In this document: positions 1 to 49,145 of the stretch, piece after piece
Position numbering within the stretch: position 1 is the stretch's first letter
Layout: each line of letters begins with the position of its first letter
Source: Schmidtea polychroa
Taxonomy: Eukaryota
Assembly (NCBI GenBank): GCA_044892525.1
Contig: CM097885.1
Location: forward strand, 265,732,001-265,796,000
DNA length: 64,000 nucleotides
Direction: 5' to 3'
The notes under the pieces: model-generated
Told to the model about the DNA's origin: nothing
What the model saw: the letters and a program-made list of their open reading frames with translations, nothing else
Databases searched by the model: none
Translations under genes and position numbers: made by a program

Positions 1-347
1 ACATAGTTTCACAGAAATCTTTATTCACTTCAAAAATCTAAACGGAACACACAATCGTTATACTATTTATAGTACATTGAATTGCGTAATCTACAAAAGG
101 GAGAATTATTAGTTTAAGTGATACTGTTGACACAGAAGACAAACATGCTTACATAATTTAGTTATACAAGCATTCCCGCATCATTCAATAGATATCAAGG
201 TCTAGTGACCTGGTTATGTAAGTAATTCGTTGGAAATTATTATATCATCTTACAATCTTACTCTCGGTGTTCATGACCTATCTTTTGTACTATTTCTTTC
301 AATTTTGCCTGATAGTTCGTCGTTTTATGAATATACGGTAACATACA

Positions 348-2594: not shown

Positions 2595-2954
2595 TACTTC
2601 AAAATCAAATTAAGGTAAGAATTTTGTAATATGAAACATAACTACTTCAAAATCAAATTAAGGTACTAACTACTACCAAACTAAGCAACCACTTTAGAAA
2701 GCACTAATTCAAAGGGAAATCTGCTAGGAAGCTTGTATAATCGGTAAATCTGAACTGCACAAGGCTTATAGAATCATTCCACATTATTACGATTGCAAGT
2801 ATCATTCAAGGATTCGTGGATCTTATCGAAGCTCTACTTATTGAATTGTTAAACGAGAAGAGAGTATATAACTCCGAATTTACTCAGTTCACTAGCAACT
2901 AATCGTTGAATTTCCAAGTAATTTAGTTGAACTTCATTTATGAAATTTATTATA

Positions 2955-4415
2955 AGTAGGTAGTTATGTGCACTCTAGATCCATGTGCANNNNNNNNNNN
3001 NNNNNNNNNNNNNNNNNNNNNNNNNNNNNNNNNNNNNNNNNNNNNNNNNNNNNNNNNNNNNNNNNNNNNNNNNNNNNNNNNNNNNNNNNNNNNNNNNNNN
3101 NNNNNNNNNNNNNNNNNNNNNNNNNNNNNNNNNNNNNNNNNNNNNNNNNNNNNNNNNNNNNNNNNNGTAATAATTTTATTTTTTGTTTTAATCATCGATT
3201 ACGTAATAATTTAAAATTTTTTTAAAACATCGATTACGTCATTGATTTTAATTTTTTATAAGAATTTTTTATGTCATTATACTTGAAATTTAATTCTCTG
3301 TTAAATGAGACTATGATGTAATCAAAATTCTGAAATTTCATTTTTAGTACACGATTTTTAAATTTACACATCTTTTTAAACAAATTGAGATATTTTCACT
3401 CAAACAATATATAGATAGAATTTTAATCTCTATAAAATGACATCAATATTTACTTCAAATTCATAATCATAACACCTTAAACAATGTATTTTTCAGCCAA
3501 CTTTTACATACACACATATTTTCAACTTTTAAAAAATACAAATTAATCATCTATACTTAACTCATAGTAAATAATTATATTAAAAGACATATTAAAAGAT
3601 GTATTAAAAACTAAACATTTATTAAAATCCCAGAGAAATTCGAGCACTATCTAATTTCCAAATCGGTGATATGACATCTTTCTCATCCATTTTATATCCC
3701 TGTATTGAAATATTTACAAACCAGCTTTCACCATCTTTATATTCAATTTCTTCAAAGGCATCATGAAAACGAGAATTTCGATTGTTGATGATTATATTTC
3801 CATTGCAACTTAGATTCTTATTGATTTTCCCCAACACTTTATTTACTGCAACAACATCTTCTTTTGTTATATGAGCAATGAAACTTGAATATTGCGACTT
3901 GATCAATTTGACTGCATTTGAGAATTTATATGGAATTTCGTCTACCAAGAAATATATCTTATGGTTATGATACATTTGTACTGGTTTCACATCATTCTTG
4001 GCATGCTTCGTCTCAGTTATTTTCTTAATTGGGCTTGTTTCTTTCAATAAATTAGAAAATGTTTTCTCACCAAAAACGTTCTTCTTGGATTGCATTTTTT
4101 AAAAATAATGACTATGATGTCATTTTATCTCTCTTTTATACTTGTGTATAACCAATCAAATGAATGCATTTGTATTGCAAACAACATGCATGTGTCATTG
4201 ACCTTCGTGTGTGACCTTTGTATGTGACCTTTACATTTGTGACCTTTGTATGTGAGTCATACATGGTTTGCATATGTATTGCAGATGTATTGCAAATTAG
4301 TTAATTAAAACGTGTACTAATTAGTGTGATATTAAAAATATTATACTAATACATGTAACATAAAAATACTATAACAACATAAAAATAGTGTACTATCACA
4401 AGTAACAATATAAAA
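2955..4415 (+). repeat. Left terminal inverted repeat (~1.45 kb; N gap 2990-3166)
   Basis: Reverse complement of 16567-18044. Carries the same 157-aa ORF and has ~19 extra nt near its inner end. Confidence 0.95.
3622..4095 (-). CDS. 157-aa TIR-encoded protein (copy 1); candidate OB-fold ssDNA-binding protein
   Basis: Translation identical to 16868-17341. The C-terminus GESWFVNISIQGYK...ISPIWKLDSARI recalls the last strands of T7 gp2.5/NCLDV-type SSBs. The function is inference. Confidence 0.8.
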   Translation of the reverse strand: MQSKKNVFGEKTFSNLLKETSPIKKITETKHAKNDVKPVQMYHNHKIYFLVDEIPYKFSNAVKLIKSQYSSFIAHITKEDVVAVNKVLGKINKNLSCNGNIIINNRNSRFHDAFEEIEYKDGESWFVNISIQGYKMDEKDVISPIWKLDSARISLGF

Positions 4416-4453
4416 ATTTTGTAACGATTAAAAATAGAATGAAAACAAATTTT

Positions 4454-7400
4454 TTATATCATAAAATTTATTAATTGACAACCATCATCATTTGGAAAAT
4501 GAGGATGATATTGCAAATCTTCATCTGGATCAACTATGGGCAGCAACATTTCTTCATCAGAATCATCAGCCATAACCATACCACCCCCCCTATAATGACC
4601 ATACGCATAACTTTTATTTTTAAGTACCCAATTGCGCTTATCGTCAGCATTAGTTAAAGCCCTCTTATTATTTTTAATACTGAAAAGTTGATGGTTTTTA
4701 CTCGTTATCCTAAATTGTGGTACTGTATAAATCTCATTATTATTATAACAATTCAGATACGACTGATGAGTTAGTCCAGTATCTTTCATTGTGACCCCCT
4801 TCGCTTTCATACATCCCTTACTACCCTTCATGCTATAACATTTTGGTCTTAAAAATATCCATTCATCATATCCAAGACCTTTGCTTTCATCTTTAAATTT
4901 CCCTATTACAGAGTCAAGGTTTTTTGAATATAATGAATGTGTTGGCTCGTAATTAGAGGTATCTAATAAATTATCCCTTATCATTGCGGGTAAAAGAGAA
5001 TTTAATTTGCAATTTTTAATTTCCAAAAAGAACGAATCTGTATCCCCAGCAACTATATTAATTTTACAATTAAATTCTATACGATATTTTTCTAAATCAA
5101 TGTACTGAAGTTGGTACATACGAAGTTTTGATAAATCCAAAACTGATTGACCAATATAACTTGGTCTATTTAAACATATTAAATCTTTTCTTAATAGAAC
5201 AGATATTAAGTCGTCATCGATTTTAGTAGTCCTTTTGAAATTAGGTTTAGAACAATATGTTAATACCTTTTGGGCTGAATTGCAAAGTCTTAAATTAATT
5301 CGTTTCTTTAGGTTTTCGACAGTCTTACCGTATAGACTGTTGTTTAATAGTTTAAAATAATTTTTATCTAATGTGTTTGTTGATGATGCCCTAAGTTGTG
5401 TGTTAGTATCTATATAATTTTTAAATATTGATGACTGTTCAAATTGTATAGCGCGATGAATTTTAGTGACCTTTACCCCAATATTTAGATAAAGCTGGAG
5501 AAGTCTCCAATGAACTACATAATTCTTTTTAGGATAGTGGGTAAGCATCAACTTCTCCACTTTGGATCCTGGTGCACAGATCTTTTCAGCTGCAACAGGG
5601 AAATCGTCAAGCTTATCATGAATCGATTCTGGAATTTCCAAATCGACTTCAACAGTATAACCGAATGTGAGTAATTCCAAGTCAACATTCATACAATCAT
5701 CCAAAATCTTATTTAATTTTATTTCATCGTTAATCCACTTAAAATTACCATCTGGTAGTTTCTGGCTAAGTGCCCAACCATATAGGTTGTTAATATCTAT
5801 ATAGAGCAACTCTGTGTTTTCATCTGATTTTACGTAATGTTTATTAACAAATGTTAATCCCCCTCGAATCCCACCCTCAAAGAAATTATAAATCTCCATG
5901 TCTTGGATCAACTCAATTGGATGATCTAAAGTCATGAGTGCAGAGTTCCATGACATACCGGGAATGCCTAAAAAGTTTAAGGGTTCCAATCTGTTATGAG
6001 CTATTGATTTTGCTCTAAACTGTTGGAAATAGTCCGCAAGTAAAAAGACATCTAATTTTAAATATATCATCATGTAATCCAAAAGTGAATTACAATTATG
6101 GTCATCCCAAATGCGCTGAGCCATATCATATTCTACTTCAGTAACACCATCCCAAATTGGAGGTAATTGGGGAGTTCCCTGAAGCACTTCTAAACTAGTT
6201 GCAAAATCATATGGGAATATGCCTTTACTATTAACAATTACTCCGTTAAATTCAGAATTAGTCAATGGAAATGTAGTTAATGTTTGTACAGCATTTTTTA
6301 AGGAATCGTTAATAAATTGACAAGAATCGATAAATTTTATAGTTAATCCATCAATTCTTGCATATAAACTTAAAAATTTTTCACTAGTTATAGGAATACA
6401 ATTAATATTCCATGATTTAAATTTACCTAAGCCAAATTTGAGAATATGATGGAGATCATATCCTCTCAAATTATGAAAAATAACTGGTAAAACCGGTCTA
6501 ATTCTTCGAGAAAGATTACAAGTTGAGCAAGCTGCACCTAAATATTTACCCGAAAAATGGTCATGATCTCTTACTGGATTTACTAAAGTTTTCTTACACA
6601 AATGACAATTTACAGCCGAAGAAAAGTTTATTTTGTCAATACTACTAAAAAACATCATTTTCCTATATCGTGTTTCAAAATATGGAGCCACTATTTGCTT
6701 ACCAATTTCTTCAAGTTCATGAAGAAACTGTTCAACACAATCCAATCCTATAAAACTTTTATAAAATTTATCCCCTGTAAAATTATTTATAAAAACAAAA
6801 CCAGCTGAGATTGGTAAATGTTTTTGATAGTATTTATTATCTTTAGGTAAAATTGCCTCAAAGTCGGCATAAATAACAAATGGAGGAGTGACAATCTTTG
6901 ACCAATTTGTAAAACTAAGATATTTATCTTCGGGTAATGTAAAGAGAGTGGTCCCTAACTGATTTTTATCACACAAACCCTTGTGTCTCATGAAAGAATT
7001 AGGATTTCGAAAACCATTTAAGCATCTCGAACACCATTTACTACAAATCCTAACAGCAGTTACACTAGAATCGTTACAATTCAAAAGTCTATCAAGATTA
7101 GTAACACCTATGTAATGATATGTGTCAAAATCTTCTAACAAAATTAAATTAATTGTTGTCCCCCCAATAACTTTAGATCGATAAATTATGTCAACATAAG
7201 GATGTTTCATAACTTCTTCAGTATTCTTAACATCATTTAATATATTTTCGTTATAAGTTAAAACATTTATCGATAAACCAGGGTTTTGGGATTCAAATTT
7301 AGAAATATTACAAAGGCGCATAGGGAGATCTGCAGGATCGAATTTTAATTCCGAAGTATTATAATTATATGGCTTAGATCTATTGGTACTAATACTATTA

Positions 7401-7932
7401 TATTTCAAAATAGATAAAATACTATATAGGAAGCATTCATCATTTGTATTTTTAACATTAACAGTACATTTTTTATTTAATAATGTTTCTGGTGTAGGAA
7501 TATATCCACGGCCAGTTAATCTGGATATTTGCGAATATTTTGTTATTATAAAACTAATATATTCAATTTTATGTATAACCCAGTTGCTTCCCTTTTCGTT
7601 AACTTTAATTATTTTTTCATTTAATAAATCAATACCATCTTCTAAGAAGGTATCACTCATGGGTCTAGCAGAATTTGAAATAACGAATGATTGAAATTCG
7701 TCATCTTTTACAAATTCCACTTTCAAACAAAATTGAATTTTTATTGAACCCATCTCGGATGAAACTTTATTTAATTCATTTATTAACTGAGTAGGGATCG
7801 AAACTGTTTTTAAATTTAAGGATGAAACATCCATTTTAACTTCTGCGTGTGTTTTATTTAAATCGAATATGGTTTCAGGTTCAAGTGAACCACCTTGTTG
7901 ATTAATAATGACTTCTGTAGAAGTTGATGTAA

Positions 7933-7995
<63 letters not shown>

Positions 7996-8413
7996 AAAGT
8001 GAATAAGAGTTAACTATCAAAGGCATGACCTCATCATCAGAGTCTGAAATAACGATAAGATCTTTTTTAACAAATTTAGAGGGTTTTAGATTAGGTAAAT
8101 TAATTTTTCTTTTATTATTTACATTAGGCTTATTATTATTATTATTAGTACTTGTAGTATCATTATTATGATTTATAGCGGGATTATAGGTATTGGAAAT
8201 ATTATTTTTTAATAAATTAATAAGGTCTTTTTTCTTTAAATTATACTGAGTTAAATGATCCCTATGTTGATGATAAAACTCCATGTATGTTACAGTCTCG
8301 GGGTTCATACAAACAGGGCAAATAAAAAAGATGGTATGATTATGGCTATGTTTGTAATATTTTTCCATTATGAAATCACAATCATCATGTAATGAACTAT
8401 TACAATAATTTTG
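4454..8413 (-). CDS. polB: Protein-primed family B DNA polymerase, main exon (start lies in or upstream of N gap 8414-8643)
   Basis: Exo motifs YADFE, HNLRGYD, DVFLLAD; pol motifs DINNLYG, KLLNNSLYGK, AGDTDS, KCY. Endonuclease VII-like CHLC...DHDH...CSTCN insert. N-terminal NDECFLYS...YHY (vOTU-like). Confidence 0.97.
7940..7995. repeat. (ATT)n microsatellite encoding poly-Asn in the PolB N-terminal region
   Basis: Directly visible; translates to a run of ~17 Asn. Confidence 0.9.
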
Positions 8414-8672
8414 NNNNNNNNNNNNNNNNNNNNNNNNNNNNNNNNNNNNNNNNNNNNNNNNNNNNNNNNNNNNNNNNNNNNNNNNNNNNNNNNNNNNNNN
8501 NNNNNNNNNNNNNNNNNNNNNNNNNNNNNNNNNNNNNNNNNNNNNNNNNNNNNNNNNNNNNNNNNNNNNNNNNNNNNNNNNNNNNNNNNNNNNNNNNNNN
8601 NNNNNNNNNNNNNNNNNNNNNNNNNNNNNNNNNNNNNNNNNNNATATTTTTATCAAAAAGGTAATTTTACTT

Positions 8673-8805
8673 AAATATATTTAACCTATTACATAATAGT
8701 TTAAACATACTTAATGCAAAATATATTTACCCTATTACGTAATAGTTTAAACATAATCAATACAAAATATATTTAACCTATTATATAATAGGTTAAATAT
8801 ATTTT
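8673..8805. repeat. Three 46-bp tandem units with palindromic cores; the third is a perfect 42-bp palindrome (8764-8805)
   Basis: Unit starts at 8673, 8719 and 8765. Core CTATTACGTAATAG at 8732-8745. Confidence 0.9.
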
Positions 8806-9004
8806 CAATCAAAATAAATTATTGATAAAAATAAATTTAACTTGTTACATAATATTTCATTATTATTATTATTATTCAAAGTACTATATTATAATTATTG
8901 TATTTAAAGTATTAATTATTATTAAAATAAAAACATTAATAAATCTTTTAATAAAACCTTATAAAAATTCATTAAAAATCTTTAAATAAAAATGAAAATC
9001 TTAC

Positions 9005-9360
9005 ATGTAACTTTTCTTTTTGATATTTTGCAATCATTTTTTCCATATGCAGTACTGCGCGCAATCAAATTGTTACCATTATTATTGTTATTTGTACTTG
9101 ACTCGTTCATATTTCGTCCATTTATAATGCATCCATTCATGTTGTTTATAATAAAATCTAAAAAGAATAAATAATTATAAATTTAATAATAATAACGAAA
9201 TACCATTTGGCATGTTTTCACTGTTATTGTTAGATCTTTTGTTGAAATTACGATTAAGACCTATAAATTATATCAATAATAATGACAAATAAATAAATAA
9301 ATAAATCTTACCATTCTTGACACTGTTTCCGCTTTGGCTTCCTTGATTATTTCTTGACAT
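9005..9360 (-). CDS. Three predicted coding exons (9360-9312, 9260-9204, 9157-9005), probably the 5' exons of polB
   Basis: ATG exon, then 57-nt and 153-nt exons, all bounded by phase-1 GT-AG introns (51 and 46 nt, then a GTAAGA donor at 9004). The joined frame is stop-free: MSRNNQGSQSGNSVKNG-LNRNFNKRSNNNSENMPND-FIINNMNG...KRKVT. Confidence 0.7.
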
Positions 9361-9680
9361 TTTGTTGAGTTTAAAATTTTAGGTATATAAAAAAGTGATG
9401 GTATATTTTTAAACATTGCTTTATATATCATAAATTGTGTAATATGTATTCACCCAATAGAAATTGAGAGTATTACATGCACACGCACTATGAAATATAA
9501 TTTACACACAATGTGAAATACTTTTCACACATTAGGAAGCAAAACTTACACACATTACAAAATAAAAATTTAACACAAACTAAGAGAACATGATTAATCA
9601 TGCATTTAAACTGCAATCTTAATGCATATGAGTAATAATAACAAAATTAATAATAATATAATTTTTAATCAAAAACTTTA

Positions 9681-10100
9681 TTAATTTTTTAAATAATCTA
9701 ACACAGCAATTAAACAATTTTTGTAAGCACAATTAGAATGATCACGGTAAGGACACAAGATATTATCAGGAAAATATTCTGATAATTGGATTGAATATTT
9801 TATTAATCTTAAATTTGGGAAATAATTTTTCAAAACTGTAAGTTTATCTTGATCAGTGACATAGAAAATTCCACTTGTATCTTCTACATCTCTCAATATA
9901 CATGTTGGACAAAACGAATCTTCACCTTCATACCATTCCAATCGATCTGAATTTTCACGTCCAGCCCAAAATGGTAAATCATTAAATAACCAATACTTTG
10001 GGCGTAAAATATTATTTACATTCATAATACATAATTCTTTAATAATTATTCCACCAGCATAATCATTATAACCTACAAAGTCAATAAAATAACAAGACAT
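9681..10100 (-). CDS. 139-aa protein; candidate degenerate DnaQ/DEDD-fold (Maelstrom-like) protein
   Basis: Clean ORF with ATG and stop. N-terminal IDFVGY...IIIKELCI resembles Exo I, and the C-terminus has CPYRDHSNCAYKN. The fold call is inference. Confidence 0.7.
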   Translation of the reverse strand: MSCYFIDFVGYNDYAGGIIIKELCIMNVNNILRPKYWLFNDLPFWAGRENSDRLEWYEGEDSFCPTCILRDVEDTSGIFYVTDQDKLTVLKNYFPNLRLIKYSIQLSEYFPDNILCPYRDHSNCAYKNCLIAVLDYLKN

Positions 10101-10132
10101 TTTTATTAATAAGATTTATTAAACTACATCGT

Positions 10133-10514
10133 TTATACATATAACATTGAATTTAGCCATGCAAGGCAATGTTGACCACATGTTTGAGTCATTGGATTTT
10201 GATAACGAATTTTATTATACAGAAGGGGTTTACCAACTGTTTGTAGTTTTGTTATCATTATATCTGGATAATAATATCCCATCGGATCAAAAACATGTAT
10301 TTTATCAGGTTTCACATATATTGCAATCCAATGTTCTCCTTCAAGATTTGATGATTGAGTATTGACGACTATAGCTTGGTTTGCGTTCAGATAGGGGATT
10401 TTATCTAATGGGAATACTCCAGTAAACTGATTCCCCAACAACATTTTTCCAATTCGATTAACCTGAATAGAACTAATCAAATAAAATTAATTATTAATTA
10501 AAAACTTACTCCAT
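10133..10514 (-). CDS. Adenain-like cysteine protease; predicted 5-nt first exon (10514-10510) and 37-nt intron (10509-10473)
   Basis: Catalytic set GEHW, FDPMG, YQ, CGQHC. The tracked ORF starts at TTG with a stop just upstream; splicing ATGGA|GTAAGT...TTAG|T gives MDSIQVNRIG in frame. Confidence 0.92.
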
Positions 10515-10579
10515 AATAAATTGTTTCCATTGTTTAATTCATTTATACTACGTTTAAACCAATACAGTTTGAAATACTT

Positions 10580-11803
10580 TCAAACCAATACTGATCGACT
10601 TGCAGTAATTTGTAATTCTCTTTCGAAAACTCCGTATACTATTACATAAACCGATTCCTCGAGTGATTTATTAAACTTTACACTCAATTTTAAATTTCCT
10701 TGTTGTGGTAATTGACTTTGATTCAAATCAAAATCTGGAGACAAAACAAATGTAAAGAATGGATATTTATCTTTAAAATCTTCAAGTGTAATCCCACAGT
10801 TCATGTTTTTATCCAAATACCCCAGATTTCTCACAATACTTTGCATATACGTTGTAGTATAATCATTTGTGTCAAAGTTTTGTGTATATGTTTCTCGATA
10901 GTCATTATTTTTGGCTAAAGTGATTGATGTAATATCCAAATGTTTAAAGATTGAGCTGGATTCCTTATATGTTCCCTTAAATTGAGATTCAGTTTGAAAT
11001 GCCACTAAAACGAAATTTGGTAATCTTTTGTCAATAAATAATTGTTCCTTGTAAAATGACGATGAACCTTTACTGATTGTAAAGTCGACAGTTTCTTTAC
11101 TTCTAATTGGATATATAGCATTTTTAGAATTTAACCCTATTTGATGCCCTGCTAAAACTGATGGTTCAACTCGAACTCTGCGAATCATTAATTTTGCTTC
11201 CAATACCTTTATCTTTGGTTCATCTGTTAGCGAATGTATACTGAATGATGATGGGTTTCTTTTCAGTGTTACATTAACATTAACTCCTGGAAGTAAATAT
11301 TTTGGTTGATCCATAAAATCTATTTGCAATGACGAACATAGGGAAACTAATTTAGAACCGGCAATTAATGCTGTTCTTTCCTTATCAGATGGAATGTAAC
11401 CCATAGGAGCCAGACAAATGTTTTTACTATCTCCATTATAATTTAAAATAGTTTCAATTAAAGCTTTTTGTGTATATCTTCCGTTTCCACCTTCAATCTT
11501 TTGACTATTGAGTCCAACAATAACATCACTAAAAAGTGTATGGAACAAGTAATTGTTAGCTTTTGCATCTGAAGTAACCGGTAATTCCTTTCCATTATTA
11601 TTTGTAACCTTTAATTTAATGTAGAGTAATGTATCATTCAAATCGAGATATTCAGTATGAGAACCAGTTATTTTGAATTCAATATCGCTTTTATTATCAA
11701 CAATTGAATTAAAGGGGAATACGTCTTCAAATGTCGCATATTCTATAACCGCCTGAGGAGTCGGTCGATCAAAAATACATAATTCAGTTTTTCCACAAAT
11801 CAT
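10580..11803 (-). CDS. Major capsid protein (double jelly-roll, Polinton PY type), 407 aa
   Basis: Polinton MCP N-terminal signature KTELCIFDRPTPQ...FP...IEFKI...YLDLNDTLLYIKLKV; size and position in the morphogenetic cluster. Confidence 0.92.
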   Translation of the reverse strand: MICGKTELCIFDRPTPQAVIEYATFEDVFPFNSIVDNKSDIEFKITGSHTEYLDLNDTLLYIKLKVTNNNGKELPVTSDAKANNYLFHTLFSDVIVGLNSQKIEGGNGRYTQKALIETILNYNGDSKNICLAPMGYIPSDKERTALIAGSKLVSLCSSLQIDFMDQPKYLLPGVNVNVTLKRNPSSFSIHSLTDEPKIKVLEAKLMIRRVRVEPSVLAGHQIGLNSKNAIYPIRSKETVDFTISKGSSSFYKEQLFIDKRLPNFVLVAFQTESQFKGTYKESSSIFKHLDITSITLAKNNDYRETYTQNFDTNDYTTTYMQSIVRNLGYLDKNMNCGITLEDFKDKYPFFTFVLSPDFDLNQSQLPQQGNLKLSVKFNKSLEESVYVIVYGVFERELQITASRSVLV

Positions 11804-12186
11804 TTTTCGAATATAGTTCCACGTCCTGTCATTCGTTTGTTTATATACCTTCGATGTTTTCTTCGCTTAGGCTGTGGTTCAGACTCTTCAGATTCTGATG
11901 CTTCATTTGATCCCATTACATTTGGTAATGAAGAAATCACATCTGGTAATGCCTCTTTGAATTCAGATATGGCATTGGATTTTAAAGATGGTAATATTTT
12001 TGCATTATTCATTATTACATCTTTAGCTGTTTTCATACCAAAATTTCCTATACGTTTAAGAATAGGAAGAGCAAACCGACCAATAGTTTTTAACCATCCG
12101 GATCCATATTGTTTGCCAACAAAATATGGTAATTCGCCACCAGTTTGACTATTGGCATAAAGAGAAACTATATCAGGATTAGACAT
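11800..12186 (-). CDS. Putative virion core/membrane-active protein (PZ-like), 128 aa
   Basis: QTGG, QYGSG and MTGRG glycine motifs, amphipathic GWLKTIGRFALPILKRIG, basic C-terminus; lies between the minor and major capsid genes. Confidence 0.75.
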   Translation of the reverse strand: MSNPDIVSLYANSQTGGELPYFVGKQYGSGWLKTIGRFALPILKRIGNFGMKTAKDVIMNNAKILPSLKSNAISEFKEALPDVISSLPNVMGSNEASESEESEPQPKRRKHRRYINKRMTGRGTIFEK

Positions 12187-13195
12187 CTTGTTTTCTAAAA
12201 TGTAAAGTTACGTGTGTTTTTGAATCGTTTGCAAATCGGATTAAATTTCCGCTATCATCGCGTATATTAATTTCTATATTGTTTATACATGTTCTCCCAA
12301 CTGGTAAATACATAGGATTTTCTATTTGTATTTGCACAACTTCATCTTGCTCATATTTCTTAATCCACACCGCTTTCAGAAGAGGTACCAGTGAATCACC
12401 AACATTTATCGGATCAATAATATCGCTATAGATGAACATTTGTTGATGATGATTAAATATTTTTCCTTTACGAACTCCACCAAATTGTTTGTCATTATAT
12501 AATTGTTTTTGTAATCCAAATGTGTTGACCAAGTTTTTATCAAATATAACTTCTTTAATGTTTTCACCGAGACTGAATTTGAAGACATTTTCATTCAGTT
12601 CAACAGACTTGAAAATATGGGGGCAATTACTTGTTAAATAGTTGGTTAAATCTTCAAGCTTCTTTATGTATAAATCATCAGTAAATGTGAAAACTGAATC
12701 TTGTAAACAATTGTACGTTAACTTCATTCTAATTACATTATTCATAATGCCATCAACATACGGCGGAATTACAATTTGAAATGTATCAGTGTGACTTATA
12801 ATTGTTGGTTCAGGAACTCCTAATCTTTTTACGCTTGCATCTTCAAATGTTATCTCGAATGGATGGTAATCGCAACAAATATTTAAAACTCCCTTGGTAA
12901 TATACATGTAACAATCATTATTTAATTCTTTTATTGTCGTTTCATCATCTTCGGGTTCAATAACATAAAAGCTGCTAACTGATTTCGATGCAATTTCTTT
13001 ATATTCAATCTTAGAATTACTGTAAAATGGAAATGTATTGTACACAAATGTGTAATCAAGCAAAGCAACTTCCCACATGTCATGCAGGTAAATGGGATTT
13101 TGTAACTCAACGATAAATTTACTAGCCTCATTATTCGGATGAATTAATGGACAGCTATTGCTTGGTAAAATAGTGAAAAAATTGTTTCTATTCAT
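12179..13195 (-). CDS. Minor capsid/penton protein (single jelly-roll, PX type), 338 aa
   Basis: FFTILPSNS...NNEASKF.V.L.NPI.L...WEVAL N-terminus and IYSDII...GDS..PLL...IEINIRD..G...LHFR C-terminus. Confidence 0.92.
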   Translation of the reverse strand: MNRNNFFTILPSNSCPLIHPNNEASKFIVELQNPIYLHDMWEVALLDYTFVYNTFPFYSNSKIEYKEIASKSVSSFYVIEPEDDETTIKELNNDCYMYITKGVLNICCDYHPFEITFEDASVKRLGVPEPTIISHTDTFQIVIPPYVDGIMNNVIRMKLTYNCLQDSVFTFTDDLYIKKLEDLTNYLTSNCPHIFKSVELNENVFKFSLGENIKEVIFDKNLVNTFGLQKQLYNDKQFGGVRKGKIFNHHQQMFIYSDIIDPINVGDSLVPLLKAVWIKKYEQDEVVQIQIENPMYLPVGRTCINNIEINIRDDSGNLIRFANDSKTHVTLHFRKQDV

Positions 13196-14211
13196 TCAAT
13201 TTGAGATGCTGATATCCAAGTTGGGTTTTGATATCCATGCCATTTGACGTAATATTGTTTATCCTTACCTTTATATTTTGATTTAAGAATTTTTTCAATT
13301 CTAAAGACAGATGGTGTCGGAATAACTTGCAGTTCCTGTTCGTAAAATTTACCCTGGATTTCATTATTATCAATATCTTTAATAACATACATAACGGGAC
13401 TCTGTTTCGTATTAATCTTCGATATTTGAAAGACTTCGTCACTCCAGTTGTTGTCAAAATTTTTAATGAATGGTGAAGCCGATATTTTACTTATTCTAAC
13501 ATGATCACCAACTTTATATTTAGGTTTCTTAATTTTTGTTACATCTTGTTGTGATAATAATATTTTCATACTATTTTTAGATGTTACATCAATCGGTCTC
13601 ATACCCTTTAGACCTCCATGTTCGGAATGATTGTAACTATGAATTATTTTCGGTAAAACATTTATCCAAGTTTTGTTACCTTGATGTACAAAATATTTTT
13701 TCAATCGATCTCTTAATGTTCTATTAAACCTTTCCACATGAGCAGCTTTGAATTGTGAAAAAACAGAGTAATGATTTATTCCCTTTAGATTTTCTTTAAC
13801 TTTGCTATTATAAAATTCTTTACCCAAATCAGTTTGTAAATTATCTGGTTTACCATTTTTAAACATTGTTTTTATTGCAACAGCCATTTCACTAGCAGAT
13901 TTGGTTTTCAATGGTATAGCTCGAGCAAATCTACTAAAGACATCAATACATGTCAAAATATATTTGTAACCCTTATTAATTTTAGAAAATGGAATCATTT
14001 CCATTAAGTCCATTTGCCATAAATCATTAATACCATATGTTTTATATGCTCTTGTGGGAAACCGTTTCAACATTGGCTTGTTTAAATTGTATGCCAGTTG
14101 ACTCGACAACCATTTTTGAGTCTCCTTTTTTGATTTGGGTACTTTTTTCTTTAACTTTTCGACTCCACCGAAACCGGCTGGATCTTTTGGGTTTGTCCAT
14201 ATCTTCTCCAT
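13192..14211 (-). CDS. int: Retrovirus-like DDE integrase with C-terminal chromodomain, 339 aa
   Basis: WQMDL (D), LQTDLGKEF (D), VERFNRTLR (E); chromodomain FRIEKIL...YYVKWHGY..PTWI. Confidence 0.97.
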   Translation of the reverse strand: MEKIWTNPKDPAGFGGVEKLKKKVPKSKKETQKWLSSQLAYNLNKPMLKRFPTRAYKTYGINDLWQMDLMEMIPFSKINKGYKYILTCIDVFSRFARAIPLKTKSASEMAVAIKTMFKNGKPDNLQTDLGKEFYNSKVKENLKGINHYSVFSQFKAAHVERFNRTLRDRLKKYFVHQGNKTWINVLPKIIHSYNHSEHGGLKGMRPIDVTSKNSMKILLSQQDVTKIKKPKYKVGDHVRISKISASPFIKNFDNNWSDEVFQISKINTKQSPVMYVIKDIDNNEIQGKFYEQELQVIPTPSVFRIEKILKSKYKGKDKQYYVKWHGYQNPTWISASQIE

Positions 14212-14309
14212 TACAACACGATGATTTAAAATTTAGAATAAGGTTTGGTAAATGTCCCATAGGTAATTGACCCATTGTTTATGATGATGATATTAAAATA
14301 ATTCAACGT

Positions 14310-14642
14310 TTATGAAGGCTCACCTAATAAACCAGATCCACCTAATAAAGATAATGCGATTGGTATCAAAGCTGATATAAACCCCCCTTTCTGTTTGTAT
14401 ATAATTTTTCGCATTATACGTTTATTTTTTGTATTTACTAACGATAAAAGTGATTTTTTATGGTTTTGCAATACAAGTTTTTTCGCTTTACTAATGTCAA
14501 CATTGCCACGCACAACATTAACAATAATTTCAAGCAAATCGTCCACAACAAATTGTGGGAATGATTGTAAAATACTTGTTCTTTTCATGAGTGGTGCTTT
14601 TATCAATGCATTAAAATATGGTATACTACGTTGTAATTTCAT
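14310..14642 (-). CDS. Conserved Polinton small core protein (PW-like), 110 aa
   Basis: LLEIIVNVVRGNV...LQNHKKSL...QKGGFISALIP pattern with a QxGG cleavage-type motif before a hydrophobic tail. Confidence 0.75.
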   Translation of the reverse strand: MKLQRSIPYFNALIKAPLMKRTSILQSFPQFVVDDLLEIIVNVVRGNVDISKAKKLVLQNHKKSLLSLVNTKNKRIMRKIIYKQKGGFISALIPIALSLLGGSGLLGEPS

Positions 14643-14675
14643 TATTGAAATTTATTTTTTATCGTTTAACTTTGT

Positions 14676-14846
14676 TTATAATTTAATCCATTTTTTAGGT
14701 GTTTTGATTGATCTTTTCTTCAACGTTTTCTTTACAGATTTCTTTACTATCTTTTTTATAGATTTCTTTACATGTTTCTTTACACGTTTCTTCTTCACTT
14801 TGACTAATTGATTATCATGTTTAATTAAAACTTTCTTGAACCCCAT
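14676..14846 (-). CDS. 56-aa Lys-rich (H1/protamine-like) protein, below the ORF-track cutoff
   Basis: MGFKKVLIKHDNQLVKVKKKRVKKHVKKSIKKIVKKSVKKTLKKRSIKTPKKWIKL*. It fills the gap between the ATPase and PW-like genes on the cassette strand. Confidence 0.75.
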   Translation of the reverse strand: MGFKKVLIKHDNQLVKVKKKRVKKHVKKSIKKIVKKSVKKTLKKRSIKTPKKWIKL

Positions 14847-14870
14847 TTTTTATTATAATAGATTCATAAT

Positions 14871-15494
14871 TTAATTTTGTTTATAAACTGTTACACCATC
14901 TTTATTAAAAATATCTGTCCTAATACGTACATCATCCATGCATTGCTGAGTAAAATCAAAGAATAAATATCCATGGGGTATTTTGGTTGCATCTTGAAAT
15001 GATTCAATTAGAAAGTTACGATTGTTTGGATATGCTTGTCTTGCAATGAAATCAATAACAGTTGCATCCCTCGGATTTTTGAAAATAACAAGATATTGAA
15101 CATTCAAGTTCCGAGTTCGATGACTCCCACCCTGATGAAACAGATTTTGTGTTATAAAAATAACTGTTACACCATGATGTCGAGATATTTTTGTAAATAA
15201 ATTATTAAAATCTTTTTCTTTGTTAGCTTCTTGATATAAATCATCAATAATAATTACATCACCCTGTTGTAATCTAGATGACCAGTTTTTATCAAATCCT
15301 TTTATTATTGTCATTTTTAATTTACAGAATTGTTCTTGCGTCAAACCATGTTCGTCATCAGCACCCCTATGCCAATATATTTTATTGAATTTTGACTTGA
15401 ACATTTTTGATTGTAATAATTTACAAACAAATAAAGTTTTACCACTACCGCTTGGACCTACAATTTGATAAACAGCATCATTTCTTAATTCCAT
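14871..15494 (-). CDS. A32/FtsK-HerA-family genome packaging ATPase, 207 aa
   Basis: Walker A GPSGSGKT, Walker B IIIDD, SRHHGVTVIFITQ, R..LN.QY. Confidence 0.96.
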   Translation of the reverse strand: MELRNDAVYQIVGPSGSGKTLFVCKLLQSKMFKSKFNKIYWHRGADDEHGLTQEQFCKLKMTIIKGFDKNWSSRLQQGDVIIIDDLYQEANKEKDFNNLFTKISRHHGVTVIFITQNLFHQGGSHRTRNLNVQYLVIFKNPRDATVIDFIARQAYPNNRNFLIESFQDATKIPHGYLFFDFTQQCMDDVRIRTDIFNKDGVTVYKQN

Positions 15495-15579
15495 TTTAAA
15501 AAATTAGTTATATATATTAATATTGTTTATATTTGTTTTAATTCATCAGTTTACTTGATGAAAAATTATTTGAAAAAAT

Positions 15580-16044
15580 ATGATTAGTAATATAAATTAT
15601 AAAGGTAGATTTGATGTATCTCATATGGAATTTCCAAAAGGTAAACCACAACAAATTGTTGACAGAAGCGGTAAACATTCAATAATATTTTTCAAGTCAG
15701 GTAAATGTCGAATAATGGGATGTAAAAAATCGATCAAAGTTGAAGATTTAAAATATGAAATCAAGGATTTACAAATTCAATCGATTACAGTTACTGCTGA
15801 TATTGAATCAAATGTTATTTTAAATGATTTATCAAAGTATATGAAATGTATTTACGAACCAGAAATATTTCCGGCATTAAGATATATAAAATACAATCCA
15901 ATGTGTGTTAACATATTCAATAGTGGTAAAGTAGTTATACTCGGTATAAAGACATTGGATTATCATTTACTTGTTTATAAAATTATTAAAGATATTAAAT
16001 CAGTAATTGATGACATGGAATTTTTAAAATTTTTCCTAAACTAA
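15580..16044 (+). CDS. TBP: TATA-binding protein (TBP)-like protein, 154 aa
   Basis: Two TBP repeats: IIFFKSGKCRIMGCK, and IQSITVT...YEPEIFPALRY...VNIFNSGKVVILGIK versus canonical IQNIVGS...YEPELFPGLIY...LIFVSGKVVLTGAK. Confidence 0.9.
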   Translation: MISNINYKGRFDVSHMEFPKGKPQQIVDRSGKHSIIFFKSGKCRIMGCKKSIKVEDLKYEIKDLQIQSITVTADIESNVILNDLSKYMKCIYEPEIFPALRYIKYNPMCVNIFNSGKVVILGIKTLDYHLLVYKIIKDIKSVIDDMEFLKFFLN

Positions 16045-16153
16045 AGTTGCAATCGTCCATGCATGAATCCAATTGGTTGATGGTGTGTATCGAAATAAGT
16101 ATATATATATATATACAATAACACTTTAATCATTTATTAAGTACTAGTTGAGA

Positions 16154-16531
16154 ATGTCAAATTTAACTGTAAATGGTATATTTTGATTATTGCTTTTTAT
16201 ATTTATAATTTTAAATGTTTTAGAAAAAATGATACAGATTCTGATTGGGAAAATGGGGGAATTATATCCGAATATTTTAAAGGATCTAATCTATTGGGCA
16301 CCAGAGATTATTCCATTCAGAATATGGATGTCTACCGGAATAGATTTGAATGTGGTTTTGTTTGATCACTTGAGGACGTTAGAAGACGATCTTGGCCCTG
16401 TTGACAGCAGCAAGCCATCAGTATGCCCATACAAATGCGAAGGATGTATTGATAGAGAGAAGAAGTATAATATATGGATATTAAGGAAAGAGTTGAGAAA
16501 AGCTCACTTTTCATTAATTGTAGATCACTAA
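16154..16531 (+). CDS. ~109-aa unknown protein, predicted two exons (16154-16175, 16224-16531)
   Basis: ATG...AAT G|GTATAT-(48 nt)-TTTTAG|AA AAA ATG gives MSNLTVNEKMIQ in the frame of tracked ORF 16190-16531; contains CPYKCEGC. Confidence 0.65.
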
Positions 16532-16703
16532 TAAATGTTTAGTTATTATAATACAGTGTTTTCTAATTTTATATTGTTACTTGTGATAGTACACTAATTT
16601 TATGTTACATGTATTAGTATAATATTTTTAATATCACACTAATTAGTACACGTTTTAATTAACTAATTTGCAATACATCTGCAATACATATGCAAACCAT
16701 GTA

Positions 16704-16856
16704 TGACTCACATACAAAGGTCACAAATGTAAAGGTCACATACAAAGGTCACACACGAAGGTCAATGACACATGCATGTTGTTTGCAATACAAATGCATT
16801 CATTTGATTGGTTATACACAAGTATAAAAGAGAGATAAAATGACATCATAGTCATT
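16704..16856 (+). promoter_or_regulatory. Predicted Pol II promoter of the TIR gene (mirrored in the left TIR on the minus strand)
   Basis: TGACTCA 16704-16710; AGGTCA x4 (16718, 16733, 16746, 16759); ATTGG 16807-16811; TATAAAAG 16823-16830; TCATT with its A at 16854, 31 nt from the TATA start; ATG at 16868. Confidence 0.65.
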
Positions 16857-16867
16857 ATTTTTAAAAA

Positions 16868-17341
16868 ATGCAATCCAAGAAGAACGTTTTTGGTGAGAAA
16901 ACATTTTCTAATTTATTGAAAGAAACAAGCCCAATTAAGAAAATAACTGAGACGAAGCATGCCAAGAATGATGTGAAACCAGTACAAATGTATCATAACC
17001 ATAAGATATATTTCTTGGTAGACGAAATTCCATATAAATTCTCAAATGCAGTCAAATTGATCAAGTCGCAATATTCAAGTTTCATTGCTCATATAACAAA
17101 AGAAGATGTTGTTGCAGTAAATAAAGTGTTGGGGAAAATCAATAAGAATCTAAGTTGCAATGGAAATATAATCATCAACAATCGAAATTCTCGTTTTCAT
17201 GATGCCTTTGAAGAAATTGAATATAAAGATGGTGAAAGCTGGTTTGTAAATATTTCAATACAGGGATATAAAATGGATGAGAAAGATGTCATATCACCGA
17301 TTTGGAAATTAGATAGTGCTCGAATTTCTCTGGGATTTTAA
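16868..17341 (+). CDS. 157-aa TIR-encoded protein (copy 2)
   Basis: Translation identical to 3622-4095. Confidence 0.8.
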   Translation: MQSKKNVFGEKTFSNLLKETSPIKKITETKHAKNDVKPVQMYHNHKIYFLVDEIPYKFSNAVKLIKSQYSSFIAHITKEDVVAVNKVLGKINKNLSCNGNIIINNRNSRFHDAFEEIEYKDGESWFVNISIQGYKMDEKDVISPIWKLDSARISLGF

Positions 17342-19871
17342 TAAATGTTTAGTTTTTAATACATCTTTTAATATGTCTTTTAATATAATTATTTACTATG
17401 AGTTAAGTATAGATGATTAATTTGTATTTTTTAAAAGTTGAAAATATGTGTGTATGTAAAAGTTGGCTGAAAAATACATTGTTTAAGGTGTTATGATTAT
17501 GAATTTGAAGTAAATATTGATGTCATTTTATAGAGATTAAAATTCTATCTATATATTGTTTGAGTGAAAATATCTCAATTTGTTTAAAAAGATGTGTAAA
17601 TTTAAAAATCGTGTACTAAAAATGAAATTTCAGAATTTTGATTACATCATAGTCTCATTTAACAGAGAATTAAATTTCAAGTATAATGACATAAAAAATT
17701 CTTATAAAAAATTAAAATCAATGACGTAATCGATGTTTTAAAAAAATTTTAAATTATTACGTAATCGATGATTAAAACAAAAAATAAAATTATTACGTAA
17801 TCGATAATTAAAACAAAAATTTAAATTTAAAAAAAAAATANNNNNNNNNNNNNNNNNNNNNNNNNNNNNNNNNNNNNNNNNNNNNNNNNNNNNNNNNNNN
17901 NNNNNNNNNNNNNNNNNNNNNNNNNNNNNNNNNNNNNNNNNNNNNNNNNNNNNNNNNNNNNNNNNNNNNNNNNNNNNNNNNNNNNNNNNNNNNNNNNNNN
18001 NNNNNNNNNTGCACATGGATCTAGAGTGCACATAACTACCTACTATTATATATTCATGCATTGCTAATAATATTTAGAATTTGTGAAAAATGTTATAATG
18101 AAAATGTTTTTTTATTAACAACCTTGCCTTGGCGACGATGCCGTCTGGAAACCCCGAGTGTGATGGGTATGAAAAATATCAAATTTTACAATTATGATAT
18201 GAATTCCAACTATGCCATGACTTCGAAATGCCAGATTTATGCAGTGAGGGAGACGATATGAATTGCGTGCTCAGAGTAGTCACTTAAAGATTACTGTAGA
18301 GACATCAGCTATGGCATCACACTCGGATTTCAAAGGGCATGGTCGCCGGGTAAATTTATTTCATTTATTGTTTAATCATTAAAAGTAGACAATTTATAAC
18401 TACATTGAACATTCTGTAACAATATTTATGTTTTCATAACATTCATTTGATAATACTGTTTCGATTTTCACATTGCTTTATTATTATTGATAGTACACTA
18501 TGCGGTGTACTATGTCTATCAGGACGGTCTAGAGAACAGTCGGTAGGGATACCGGTCGTATCTGGATGGTCCTGGTGAGCGGAAAAGCCACGACTGTATA
18601 ATCCATCGAGTGTAATGGCAAGTGTTTTCATCGAGGAGCGATAGAAGTCGTTTTTCGCGAAAGATTTTGTAAATCCAAACGTCTTCAAATCTCATAGGAT
18701 TCCAGATTTTCTTACTAGACAAATTCCAAGTGATCTAGGAAAATTCCGTTCGATAAATTTGTTTCCGGGGCAGTCGTGGAATTCACCTTCATCGAATTAT
18801 AGAAAATCATCCATCTTTACTTCTTTGATCAGACGATCATTTTCTAATCGACTCGGAGAATCTGTATAATTTACGACCTAAATATTCCCAATGTTTAGTA
18901 ACAGTATTGTTTATAGCGATAGCCCAAATTCGATGTAGATTACGATCTGTAGGCAATAGCATCTCTGAATTCGCAAAGCATCGTCAGCGATTCAGGCACG
19001 ATCGACAACGATTGAATTTCGTCGATAAACAACCAGCTAGTAGAATTCCACTGCACGATTGTAATGAGATTTTCACTAAACAAAGAAGAAGATAATATAA
19101 ACAAATTAGAGCCAACGATCAATAGAATCGATTAAATCCGTCAGACTTGTTTATCCAACAGTATATGTCAATGTAAGCTCTCGTAGTAGACTGGAATTAA
19201 GAGAATCTCCTGGCAAAATGCAAATATTTACACGTCGCAGAATGTTAAGGCTCGGAGATGAATTTACCTAAATCAACTACACATTGACAAATTGAAACGC
19301 TTAACATAAATAATGAAAATTGACGACGAATAATATATCTACTATTGAAATAATTCAACTTAGAATCTCACATGAAAAATTTAGAATTAGTTCTTATTAT
19401 TTAAGTCTAAATATTTCAAAATCTAGAATTGGTTATTATTATTCAAGTACATTCAATACATAAAAACAATTAAAAATCGATTCGTCTAATAAATTAACTA
19501 ATAATGTAGATTTCTAAAGAAAATTTAGGCAAATAATGCAATTGATCAAATTTCACCCTAGTCGTAATCCCAGTGCTATTACGATAATGATTATGATTCC
19601 GAAAATTAAAAGGTTACTGTATGAGGGAAGGAATGCCTCTAAAGTTGAAATTTATACTAGCGGTCAGTGATCGGTCTTATCTACCATAATACGACGATTC
19701 ATTTTCTCTAACTACGTCCTTTTCTATAAATGTGTGAACCCAATCTGCCGCCGAAGGGACTCCAATCCTGTTTCTCTTGCGCAGATAAAAATTCCGATAT
19801 AAAAAAACTCCAAGAACACAATGGCACGCTGAAGAAGCGAATTGAGCATTACGAATGCACATGGTTCTTTC

Positions 19872-48339: not shown

Positions 48340-49145
48340 AATTCACAAACGATAATATTTTTAAATATTACATCGATACCAATACCCGACTTAGGGCGAA
48401 TCGAGTAATGCCTTGGATAAAAATTATTATAAGTTATTAAATAATAGTCTTTACGGCAAGACCGTAGAGAATCTGAAAAGTCTGAATTTGCGGCTTTGTA
48501 ATTCGGCTTCTAAGCTAATTACATATACATCTAAACCAACGTTTAAAAGGACTTATGAAATTGACAGTGACTCAGTATCAGTCTTGCTAAATAAGGAAGC
48601 TATTTGTTTAGATAGACCCAGCTACATTGGCCAAACTGTACTGGACTTATCGAAATTTAGAATGTATCAGTTGCAGTATGAAGAGTTACAAAAATATCGT
48701 AACGAATTCAACAGTAAAATTAATATCGTTGCAGGTGATACGGATTTTTTTTTCCTTGAAGTTATTCATTGTAAACTTGATGTTCTTTTACCAGCCATGA
48801 TCCGAGATAATTTACTAGACACATCTAATTACGAACCTAGTCATCCATTATATAGTAGGGATCTTGATTCTGTCATTGGAAAGTTCAAAGACAAGAATAA
48901 AGGTCTTGAATATAGGGAGTGGGTTTTCTTAGGTCAAAATGTTATAGTTTGAAGAACTAACATTGAAAGGTAGTACATCAGTCGTACCTGGAATGTTATA
49001 ACACTAATCACATTTTTTCTATACCCCAAACTAAAATAACTAGATAAAACCACCAGCTATTCACCATAAAAAATGAAAAAACTGCACTTACCAACGCAGA
49101 TGATAAAAGGGTTTGGGTGGGGAAAAATAAGTTATGCATATGGGA
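48340..49145 (+). pseudogene. polB: Decayed Polinton polB fragment (motif B to C-terminus)
   Basis: YKLLNNSLYGKTVENL, AGDTDFFF, LTNADDKR, closely paralleling the intact PolB; frameshifts and deletions. Confidence 0.92.

Follow-up and report, generated by a model that had tools for sequence, protein, structure and literature searches.

We analysed a 64,000-nt stretch of Schmidtea polychroa DNA (contig CM097885.1, forward strand, positions 265,732,001 to 265,796,000; hereafter the window), which carries a 15-kb Polinton/Maverick element of the adintovirus type. The element encodes a short protein with the fold of a TATA-binding protein (TBP), hereafter vTBP, and a minus-strand cassette of packaging, integrase and putative capsid genes that lie behind the word YATAAACR. 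In our reading, to which we assign a probability of about 0.7, vTBP is made early under host control and then turns on the late genes through YATAAACR, with host TFIIB and RNA polymerase II (Pol II). The fold, the substitutions, the selection on the gene and the statistics of the box are observed, and from them we infer binding and transcription.

The vTBP gene (15580..16044, plus strand) is an open reading frame (ORF) of 154 codons without a stop, and its product matches the Pfam TBP family (PF00352) at E 2.7e-15 (56.4 bits, cut-off 22.9). The initial annotation, made from the sequence, had described a clean TBP-like ORF with both repeats; the ORF stands and both repeats are present, with repeat 1 cut down. 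The single stretch that passes PF00352 alone is repeat 2 (residues 64-127). Searching the PDB with the vTBP sequence gave 36 sequences at E up to 1, the top 35 of which are all TBPs. A structure model built from a 74-sequence alignment has a mean predicted local distance difference test score (pLDDT) of 96, and its top 44 Foldseek matches are TBPs. With a second structural aligner the model matches an archaeal TBP at Z 12.5, with a root-mean-square deviation (rmsd) of 2.5 Å over 143 residues, whereas the next unrelated fold reaches Z 6.4. The saddle is pseudo-symmetric and two-repeat, with 143-145 residues aligning to TBPs over both lobes at Z of about 12, so that the TBP saddle proposed for checking is what the model adopts. 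The same alignment places model residues 1..145 on yeast TBP 66..240, supporting the residue register used below. In repeat 1 the model is without helix H1, and H2 is reduced to a three-residue remnant. The span from yeast G125 to Q158 holds 19 residues in vTBP against 32-35 in cellular TBPs, and that from T73 to F116 holds 29 against 42-46. Long-form relatives hold 28-31 residues in the H2 span; a single-sequence model of one of them reached a pLDDT of 33.5.

The DNA-contacting face of vTBP has been rebuilt at fixed positions. Yeast numbers were assigned by matching the host TBP exon, without gaps, to full-length yeast TBP, and conservation was counted over 23 element-borne proteins. Three intercalating Phe residues, F38, F97 and F113 (yeast F116, F190 and F207), are invariant in 23/23, and the fourth, yeast F99, is replaced by P23, again a Pro in all 23. 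The second-repeat Asn, N159, has become S68 (Ser/Thr in 23/23), while N69 is kept in 21/23; the initial annotation had recognized the three retained Phe, the loss of the first and the Asn-to-Ser change, and all of these hold. Arg replaces V122 (R44) and Met replaces T124 (M46), each in 22/23 proteins, and V161 is Thr or Ser in every one (Thr in vTBP). I194 is now R101 and L205 is N111, both in 23/23. Further changes in vTBP are V203 to C109, V71 to N6 and T73 to Lys, and T215 is mostly Leu, Cys or Met among the element proteins (Leu in vTBP). The features of a canonical TBP that vTBP lacks are the set of four Phe, the N69/N159 and T124/T215 pairs and the H2 of repeat 1. P191 and the acidic C-terminal stirrup are kept, the latter as E93 (yeast E186) in 21/23 and E95 (yeast E188) in 23/23; acidic stirrup residues serve TFIIB, and the available part of the cited text numbers them E184 and E188 (10.1101/2025.08.25.672222). 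The yeast mutant TBPm3, whose specificity is altered, carries its three changes at I194, V203 and L205 (PMC1636458), so that R101, C109 and N111 of vTBP sit at the same three positions. Fifteen more distant relatives, of no known context, share Pro at F99 (13 of them) and, in all 15, Arg at V122, Met at T124 and Asn at L205. Because most of these keep a longer H2 span, the change of the DNA face is older than the loss of H2.

Upstream of the cassette genes lies a shared word. Reading upstream of all loci placed (T/C)ATAAAC(A/G) about 35 nt before the ATPase ATG, and the same YATAAACR precedes the other cassette genes, often within the coding region upstream. The initial annotation had suggested possibly variant TATA promoters without naming this motif, and YATAAACR bears the suggestion out. 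Starts were de-duplicated, and those that could not be placed or had <130 nt upstream were left out; the rows are related by descent. Sense ATAAAC occurs within 130 nt upstream of 95/107 cassette-gene starts, compared with 2 for antisense and 11.4 for shuffled sequence. By gene, it precedes the ATPase in 26/27, the pX-like gene in 10/10, the integrase in 17/20, the putative minor capsid gene in 9/10, orf128 in 8/8, the putative major capsid gene in 14/14, the protease in 5/8 and orf139 in 6/10. Before vTBP (4/49), the family B DNA polymerase (PolB; 0/3), the gene in the terminal inverted repeat (TIR; 1/4) and orf100 (1/3) it is at chance, 6/59 against 4.7 expected. Canonical TATAWAWR instead precedes 24/49 vTBP starts, against 6.5 expected, mostly at 35-49 nt. 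Over 93 sites the box is flanked by Y in 94% and R in 99%, with no bias further out, which makes the word 8 bp long, a TBP footprint. It never lies <32 nt from the nearest ATG. Across the coding regions of 21 loci, the final 130 nt (12,220 nt in total) contain 61 boxes and the remaining 55,448 nt a single one. ATA AAC likewise spells Ile-Asn in 37/54 cases within those final 130 nt vs 4/91 elsewhere (p 5.5e-17). This placement and codon bias near coding-region ends indicate selection on the DNA word itself. Sense-strand counts are 105 for ATAAAC, 9 for ATAAAG, 24 for ATAAAT and 25 for ATAAAA, the last two being about equal on both strands. The window's element has 10 YATAAACR sites, all on the cassette strand, and the whole window has 19 against 18.5 expected, which is chance level. 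No initiator-like signal was evident behind the box at 48 sites. The boxes and related words of the element are as follows.

15524..15531, minus strand: TATAAACA box, predicted late promoter, 37 nt before the ATPase ATG
14878..14885, minus strand: TATAAACA box in the 3' end of the ATPase gene, before the Lys-rich ORF
14673..14680, minus strand: TATAAACA box over the stop of the Lys-rich ORF, before the pX-like gene
14307..14314, minus strand: CATAAACG box over the pX-like stop, 39 nt ahead of the ORF for the 77-aa Met-Gly protein
14276..14283, minus strand: CATAAACA box, 72 nt before the integrase ATG
13256..13263, minus strand: GATAAACA, a variant box within the chromodomain part of the integrase gene, preceding the putative minor capsid gene
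12280..12287, minus strand: TATAAACA box in the 3' end of the putative minor capsid gene, before orf128
11838..11845, minus strand: TATAAACA box in the 3' end of orf128, 42 nt before the putative major capsid ATG
10540..10547, minus strand: TATAAATG box, 33 nt before the predicted spliced protease start; an exception that fits the canonical TATA consensus
10130..10137, minus strand: TATAAACG box over the protease stop, 37 nt before orf139
9143..9150, minus strand: TATAAACA box in the AT-rich stretch upstream of PolB; no assigned gene follows it
15509..15516, plus strand: TATATATA in the spacer, 71 nt before the vTBP ATG

The spacer word TATATATA, which the initial annotation had singled out, exists at its position and is not a conserved signal. 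It appears in 8.8% of 5000 shuffles of the spacer, and within 60 nt of the ATPase start it is found in 4/12 copies, all from the window's family, vs 12/12 for ATAAAC. We rejected it as the key spacer promoter on these grounds; it may be the host-type TATA of vTBP in this copy. The two small ORFs at 14042-14275 (77-aa Met-Gly) and 14676-14846 (56-aa Lys-rich) each follow a box of their own. A covariation of the first box base with the form of vTBP (T in 61/74 for the short form vs C in 16/21 for the long form) was not used, being inconsistent by locus and confounded by GC content and descent. Contigs aligned to the element for signs of expression revealed no start of transcription; one poly(T) loose end, at 14126, coincides with an A-run in the genome and was discounted.

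The vTBP gene is widespread and maintained. The host's own genome gave 150 scored matches out of 4170 first-look candidates. Among these, 23, counting the window's own copy, are identical to vTBP, and 48 run full length without a stop at an identity of 93% or more; the remainder mostly belong to sister families at 63-66%, which keep the same neighbour genes as the window element, with further families at 55-59%. Elsewhere, 88 relatives were found among 107 candidates, and a search of representatives at 50% identity gave 61 clusters with E values of 1e-30 or lower. Of 80 metagenome loci with vTBP, 58 carry another element gene and the remaining 22 are contigs of 1.0-3.1 kb. Two Polinton contigs with vTBP and boxes (L215 and L216) sit in records titled as bacterial metagenome-assembled genomes, and these are most likely mis-binned eukaryotic virus DNA. 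The ratio of nonsynonymous to synonymous change (dN/dS) between the window gene and six sister-family copies is 0.10-0.24, and over 226 pairs with a synonymous difference (pS) of 0.08-0.6 its median is 0.24 (range 0.03-0.45); the dN of vTBP is on a par with that of the putative capsid gene. In the window's own family, three older copies show dN/dS of 0.6-1.9 on few changes, which is what decay after insertion would be expected to give.

Identity of vTBP is 23-28% to cellular TBPs and 17-22% to five host proteins, the canonical TBP (L051) and four divergent paralogues. A quick tree of 52 proteins (midpoint root, support by the Shimodaira-Hasegawa-like approximate likelihood ratio test, SH-aLRT, only), in which the window protein was dropped as a duplicate and is represented by the sister families L033, L035 and L066, splits 37 element and wider-family rows from 15 cellular, host and other rows by a long branch with an SH-aLRT of 100. 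As the branches are long, no donor can be named. Identity, tree and dN/dS together reject a recent capture of host TBP. By these sequence comparisons vTBP is multi-copy, old, under purifying selection and outside the host TBP group, and the gene is thus neither confined to this copy nor nested within host TBP as a recent passive capture free of purifying selection, the combination raised at the outset as damaging to a viral TBP. The host itself carries a canonical TBP and at least four divergent paralogues (L051-L057; G000 C1, C2), of which at least two have intronless cores and one has lost both first-repeat Phe. It also has at least 13 near-identical, intronless, clustered TFIIB-like genes of ~300 aa (L238-L240; G000 C3 38-39 Mb, C1 23.8-24.2 Mb), distinct from an intron-split canonical TFIIB and a BRF1-like gene; none of the three stretches examined lies inside a Polinton.

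The boundaries of the element are sharp, and a virus bounded by TIRs and a target-site duplication (TSD), as originally described, is confirmed. The TIRs are 100% identical across 1199+35 unmasked nt and ATTATA duplications stand at both flanks, which makes the insertion at 2955-18044 young. Long TIRs, a 6-bp TSD, an rve integrase, a packaging ATPase and an adenain protease are hallmarks of the Polinton/adintovirus type; the element proteins match Pfam rve (1.3e-10), Pox_A32 (4.8e-6) and Peptidase_C5 (1.1e-4). The cassette stands head-to-head with the vTBP gene, which is transcribed away from it across an 85-bp spacer, as had been noted.

2955..18044: whole Polinton/Maverick (adintovirus-type) element, 15,090 bp, ends AGTAGG...CCTACT
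2949..2954, plus strand: left TSD, 6 bp, ATTATA
18045..18050, plus strand: right TSD, 6 bp, ATTATA
2955..4365, plus strand: left TIR (2990-3166 given as N)
16598..18044, minus strand: right TIR (17841-18009 given as N)
15580..16044, plus strand: vTBP, short TBP-fold protein, 154 aa, acidic stirrup YEPEIFP kept
15495..15579: head-to-head spacer between the ATPase and vTBP genes, 85 bp, 12% GC
14871..15494, minus strand: A32-like packaging ATPase, 207 aa (the Pox_A32 match)
14676..14846, minus strand: Lys-rich ORF, 56 aa, putative core protein judged by composition
14310..14642, minus strand: 110-aa pX-like ORF with a weak C-terminal Adeno_PX match (E 0.084), probably GasderminX-like in Starrett's naming
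14042..14275, minus strand: 77-aa Met-Gly ORF, overlapping the integrase start in a different frame; similar starts in further families
13192..14211, minus strand: rve integrase with a C-terminal chromodomain, 339 aa (Pfam)
12179..13195, minus strand: putative minor capsid protein, 338 aa, so named only for its position and size, with no family match
11800..12186, minus strand: orf128, conserved cassette gene, probably cupiennin-like in Starrett's naming
10580..11803, minus strand: putative major capsid protein, 407 aa, by position, size and weak matches only
10133..10514, minus strand: adenain-type protease; its first exon is predicted to be 5 nt long and to be followed by a 37-nt GT-AG intron (10473-10509)
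9681..10100, minus strand: orf139, conserved in relatives, without a family match
4454..8368, minus strand: PolB, 1304 aa, without an ATAAAC box upstream
16154..16531, plus strand: orf100, which follows a TATA-like (TA)n run and has a predicted intron of 48 nt (16176-16223)
16868..17341, plus strand (second copy 3622-4095, minus strand): TIR ORF, 157 aa, with canonical TATAAAAG 45 nt upstream

The putative major capsid protein gave weak matches to Capsid_N (E 0.0079) and to a double jelly-roll (DJR)-like family (E 0.039), each in 1/11 relatives, and the putative capsid proteins had no match in the PDB or PHROGs. PolB has no direct Pfam match and is 57-62% identical to sister copies that pass the cut-off of PF03175 (protein-primed family B). 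The TIR ORF resembles a phage single-stranded DNA-binding protein by language-model features (score 0.89, a lead only), and it adjoins vTBP in many metagenome relatives. The very short predicted GT-AG introns of the protease (37 nt) and orf100 (48 nt) have counterparts in sister families.

In the mechanism we propose, host TBP would read the vTBP gene and the TIR gene through canonical TATA boxes, so that vTBP is made early, and vTBP would then bind the 8-bp YATAAACR before the packaging, integrase and putative capsid genes. The 3' end of a TATA box faces repeat 1 of TBP in the usual orientation. In that orientation repeat 1 of vTBP, with P23, R44, N6 and Ile/Val at L114, would lie over the 3' half of the box and accept its invariant C7, and it is mainly by this fixed C at position 7 that YATAAACR departs from TATAWAWR. 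Cellular TBP takes a position-7 C only by a Hoogsteen pair, avoiding Leu-72 (Arabidopsis; yeast L114), according to the accessible part of a source citing Patikoglou 1999 (PMC13566119). The kept stirrup (E93, E95) would dock TFIIB and so recruit host Pol II. Loss of H2 may free vTBP from host regulators of that face, which is used by TFIIA, Mot1, TAF1 and Brf1. The outcome would be an early-to-late switch for particle assembly and integration. No RNA polymerase gene is present among the ORFs of the 15-kb element, which together with the predicted spliceosomal introns points to nuclear host Pol II. In the reverse register, N111 would read the G of TGTTTATR, as TBPm3 reads TGTA; this is the less favoured arrangement, because the stirrup is kept and the distance is TATA-like. 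More broadly, we lean somewhat towards the view of a widespread lineage of integrating viruses, 15-20 kb in size, whose two-stage gene programme depends on one orthogonal TBP of 150 residues, which would have its own 8-bp box with a fixed C7, a stirrup to TFIIB and Pol II, and a host-regulator surface that has been shed.

As an association, the link between vTBP and the box appears strong, and several points weigh against the reading built on it. Nearly all loci were found with the TBP query, so the co-occurrence is built in. A TBP-independent ATPase query found 5 loci, 2 with vTBP and boxes (L215 and L216, the latter without a box before the ATPase) and 3 without. Two of these three, L217 and L218 (one lineage), have no vTBP on their incomplete contigs, with none beside the ATPase, and a box before 0/3 genes each; L219 has no vTBP on an incomplete contig and a box before 0/2 genes. 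These vTBP-less contigs are too short to prove the gene absent, which makes them a thin control. The loci, though de-duplicated, are related by descent. L149 has vTBP and no box on its 2-kb contig, and 25/49 vTBP genes are without a canonical TATA within 130 nt. The protease carries TATAAATG or TATAAATA in 3/4 families of this host; by family its boxes are TATAAATG, TATAAATA, TATAAATG or TATAAACC, 32-34 nt before a first exon predicted at 5 nt, with a short intron after it (in frame in 3/4). On the protein, L114, which clashes with a G:C pair at position 7, stays hydrophobic (Ile, Val or Leu), and vTBP, having lost a Phe, an Asn and both Thr, could also bind DNA weakly or not at all. The words early and late are labels taken from gene function and should be read as such. 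As a control, another Polinton type of the host genome, unrelated to this one and carrying PLA2-integrase and DJR-like genes and a polymerase 27% identical, showed no match to the vTBP profile and a box before 0/11 genes. This type (L195-L198; G000 C2 101.94 Mb, C3 134.88 Mb) is Alpha-like, and many of its genes start behind an A/T-rich ...TAAA-ATG. Searches of viral contigs and phage records gave nothing for the ATPase or the putative capsid and one weak, unrelated TBP match. A divergent capsid query in the own genome gave matches at 28-30% identity, of which the one examined (L220) is a known sister-family member.

Because cellular TBP can bind a position-7 C variant (PDB 1qn3), the box may be a weak host TATA, and this underlies the alternative that we consider unlikely yet the most serious: host TBP/TFIID would read YATAAACR as a deliberately weak TATA, and vTBP would be a decoy or repressor sitting on TFIIB or TATA DNA (TRF2-like or dominant-negative) and damping host or early viral genes. 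The Hoogsteen tolerance described above (PMC13566119, in the part available), the missing equivalents of F99, N159, T124 and T215 and the canonical protease box in three of four families all fit it. A merely weak box, however, need not hold an invariant C, as it does with 105 sense ATAAAC against 9 ATAAAG, 24 ATAAAT and 25 ATAAAA; the new residues of the DNA face are fixed rather than degenerate, and the vTBP-less elements examined are without the box.

The other explanations leave vTBP a bystander or take the box off the promoter, and each seems to us quite improbable. A host forkhead factor could bind the box and tie the cassette to a host tissue or stage, with vTBP unrelated. ATAAACA does fit the forkhead consensus RYAAAYA, and the element holds other host-factor-like repeats (TTACGTAA, AAGGTCA), but GTAAAC, the other common core of these factors, occurs 6 times against 105 for ATAAAC, and the 95-to-2 strand bias with a hard 32-nt minimum to the ATG are traits of a core promoter. 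That spacing, bounded relative to the downstream ATG, also speaks against an RNA-level 3'-end or processing signal of the upstream gene, an idea to which we give little credence even though the majority of boxes fall within 130 nt of the upstream gene's end, in several cases across its stop codon: the head-to-head spacer before the ATPase has no upstream gene on that strand in the window or the sister families, and a box as far as ~100 nt within a coding region cannot mark the end of its transcript. Hardly more plausible is a late promoter borrowed from a helper large DNA virus, with vTBP as an accessory. In the literature available, virophages and Polinton-like viruses are described as having motifs in common with their helpers, but no helper was seen here, the predicted spliceosomal introns imply nuclear host Pol II, and the box is common to lineages from many habitats whose proteins are 26-68% identical. 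We therefore retain the reading in which vTBP itself turns on the cassette through YATAAACR.

Other features of the element and its surroundings were recorded. Upstream of PolB (8673-8854) lie three to four 46-bp repeats, each with TTA(C/T)(A/G)TAA, which together make up a 132-bp imperfect palindrome. The TTACGTAA palindrome of these repeats, which we take to be a bZIP-like site, recurs in both TIRs (3199, 17757, 17793), and the palindromic repeats may drive early genes. At 16708-16764 (left TIR 4205-4246), four AAGGTCA repeats, presumably nuclear-receptor-like half sites, stand with a CCAAT and TATAAAAG upstream of the TIR ORF. A (TAT)n run in PolB (7930-7994) encodes a poly-Asn tract whose length seems variable among copies, as their open frames differ. 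Outside the element, a second, diverged PolB fragment (48400-48939) has 71-76% DNA identity, and the flanks contain hAT and retroelement remnants.

The control of Polinton capsid genes and the formation of particles without a helper virus form an open field, in which a matched factor and promoter would make capsid-gene control testable. vTBP also offers a natural experiment on which saddle residues set TATA specificity and on whether Pol II initiation needs the H2 face, and an orthogonal TBP-box pair could serve synthetic gene circuits. If the broader view of a widespread virus lineage is true, it would describe the smallest viral switch of basal transcription known, arrived at independently of the herpesviruses. 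It would also provide a natural TBP-promoter pair of altered specificity and a way into the question of what permits Polintons to make particles.

With the adintoviruses and Polintons of Starrett et al. 2021 (PMC8502044, in the part available) the element shares PolB, the rve integrase, the A32/FtsK ATPase, adenain, TIRs and a 6-bp TSD, and its pX-like and cupiennin-like genes suggest a Beta virion module. The statement in the initial annotation that TBP lies outside the standard Polinton gene set fits the literature examined, with the reservation that, in the accessible text, a figure legend on related MELD viruses carries a TBP label, without analysis or promoter (Starrett et al. 2021, PMC8502044; preprint 10.1101/697771); the gene so labelled may belong to the vTBP family. 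The text layer of the adintovirus maps in the available supplement of PMC8502044 has no TBP label. A term search of the accessible text of PMC11161782, PMC11131425, 10.64898/2026.10.13.758929, 10.64898/2026.06.19.733378 and PMC12220804 turned up nothing relevant on TBP, TATA or promoters, and a literature search on Polinton/Maverick with TBP, TATA or promoter, with subscription papers and Repbase notes outside its scope, returned no description of the vTBP family or the ATAAAC motif.

Among cellular proteins, TBP (2z8u, 1ytb, 1cdw) has the same saddle of two repeats as vTBP (Z 12, rmsd 2.4-3.2 Å), and vTBP retains three of its Phe together with N69, P191 and the acidic stirrup; vTBP differs in its 154-aa length, the lack of H1 and most of H2 in repeat 1, and the rebuilt DNA face. 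TRF2/TBPL1 is a TBP paralogue with a replaced intercalating Phe that serves a separate promoter class; it is cellular, has a full-length saddle and is not known to bind TATA DNA. A replaced intercalating Phe is common to it and vTBP, and no TRF2 sequence was identified in the alignment. The TBP-like proteins of giant viruses and mirusviruses are also virus-borne TBP folds, but they are ~17% identical to vTBP and their viruses are far larger than the 15-kb element. These viruses mostly bring their own RNA polymerase. The best BFVD match of vTBP is from Heterosigma akashiwo virus 01 (E 1.6e-8), and TBPs are mentioned for mirusvirus-like elements in the available part of PMC10675990. The beta- and gammaherpesviral TBP mimics, a type marked by late kinetics that hinge on viral DNA replication and on the mimic, serve as our working analogy. 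According to the accessible text of 10.1101/2025.08.25.672222, mimics of the KSHV (Kaposi's sarcoma-associated herpesvirus) ORF24 type have a polar DNA face and act at TATTWAA late promoters, with host TATA used for early genes; ORF24 is large and multi-domain, works in a six-protein complex, keeps four Phe, is without the TFIIB-binding acidic residues and binds Pol II directly. Structure matches of vTBP to herpes proteins are weak (BcRF1, E 0.032), making an independent origin likely. Like these mimics, vTBP pairs a TBP fold with a private TATA variant before structural genes, though the word differs from TATTWAA; unlike ORF24, which has added domains for Pol II binding and, at its C terminus, for DNA binding, it is a bare single domain with no partner complex evident, three Phe and the stirrup kept.

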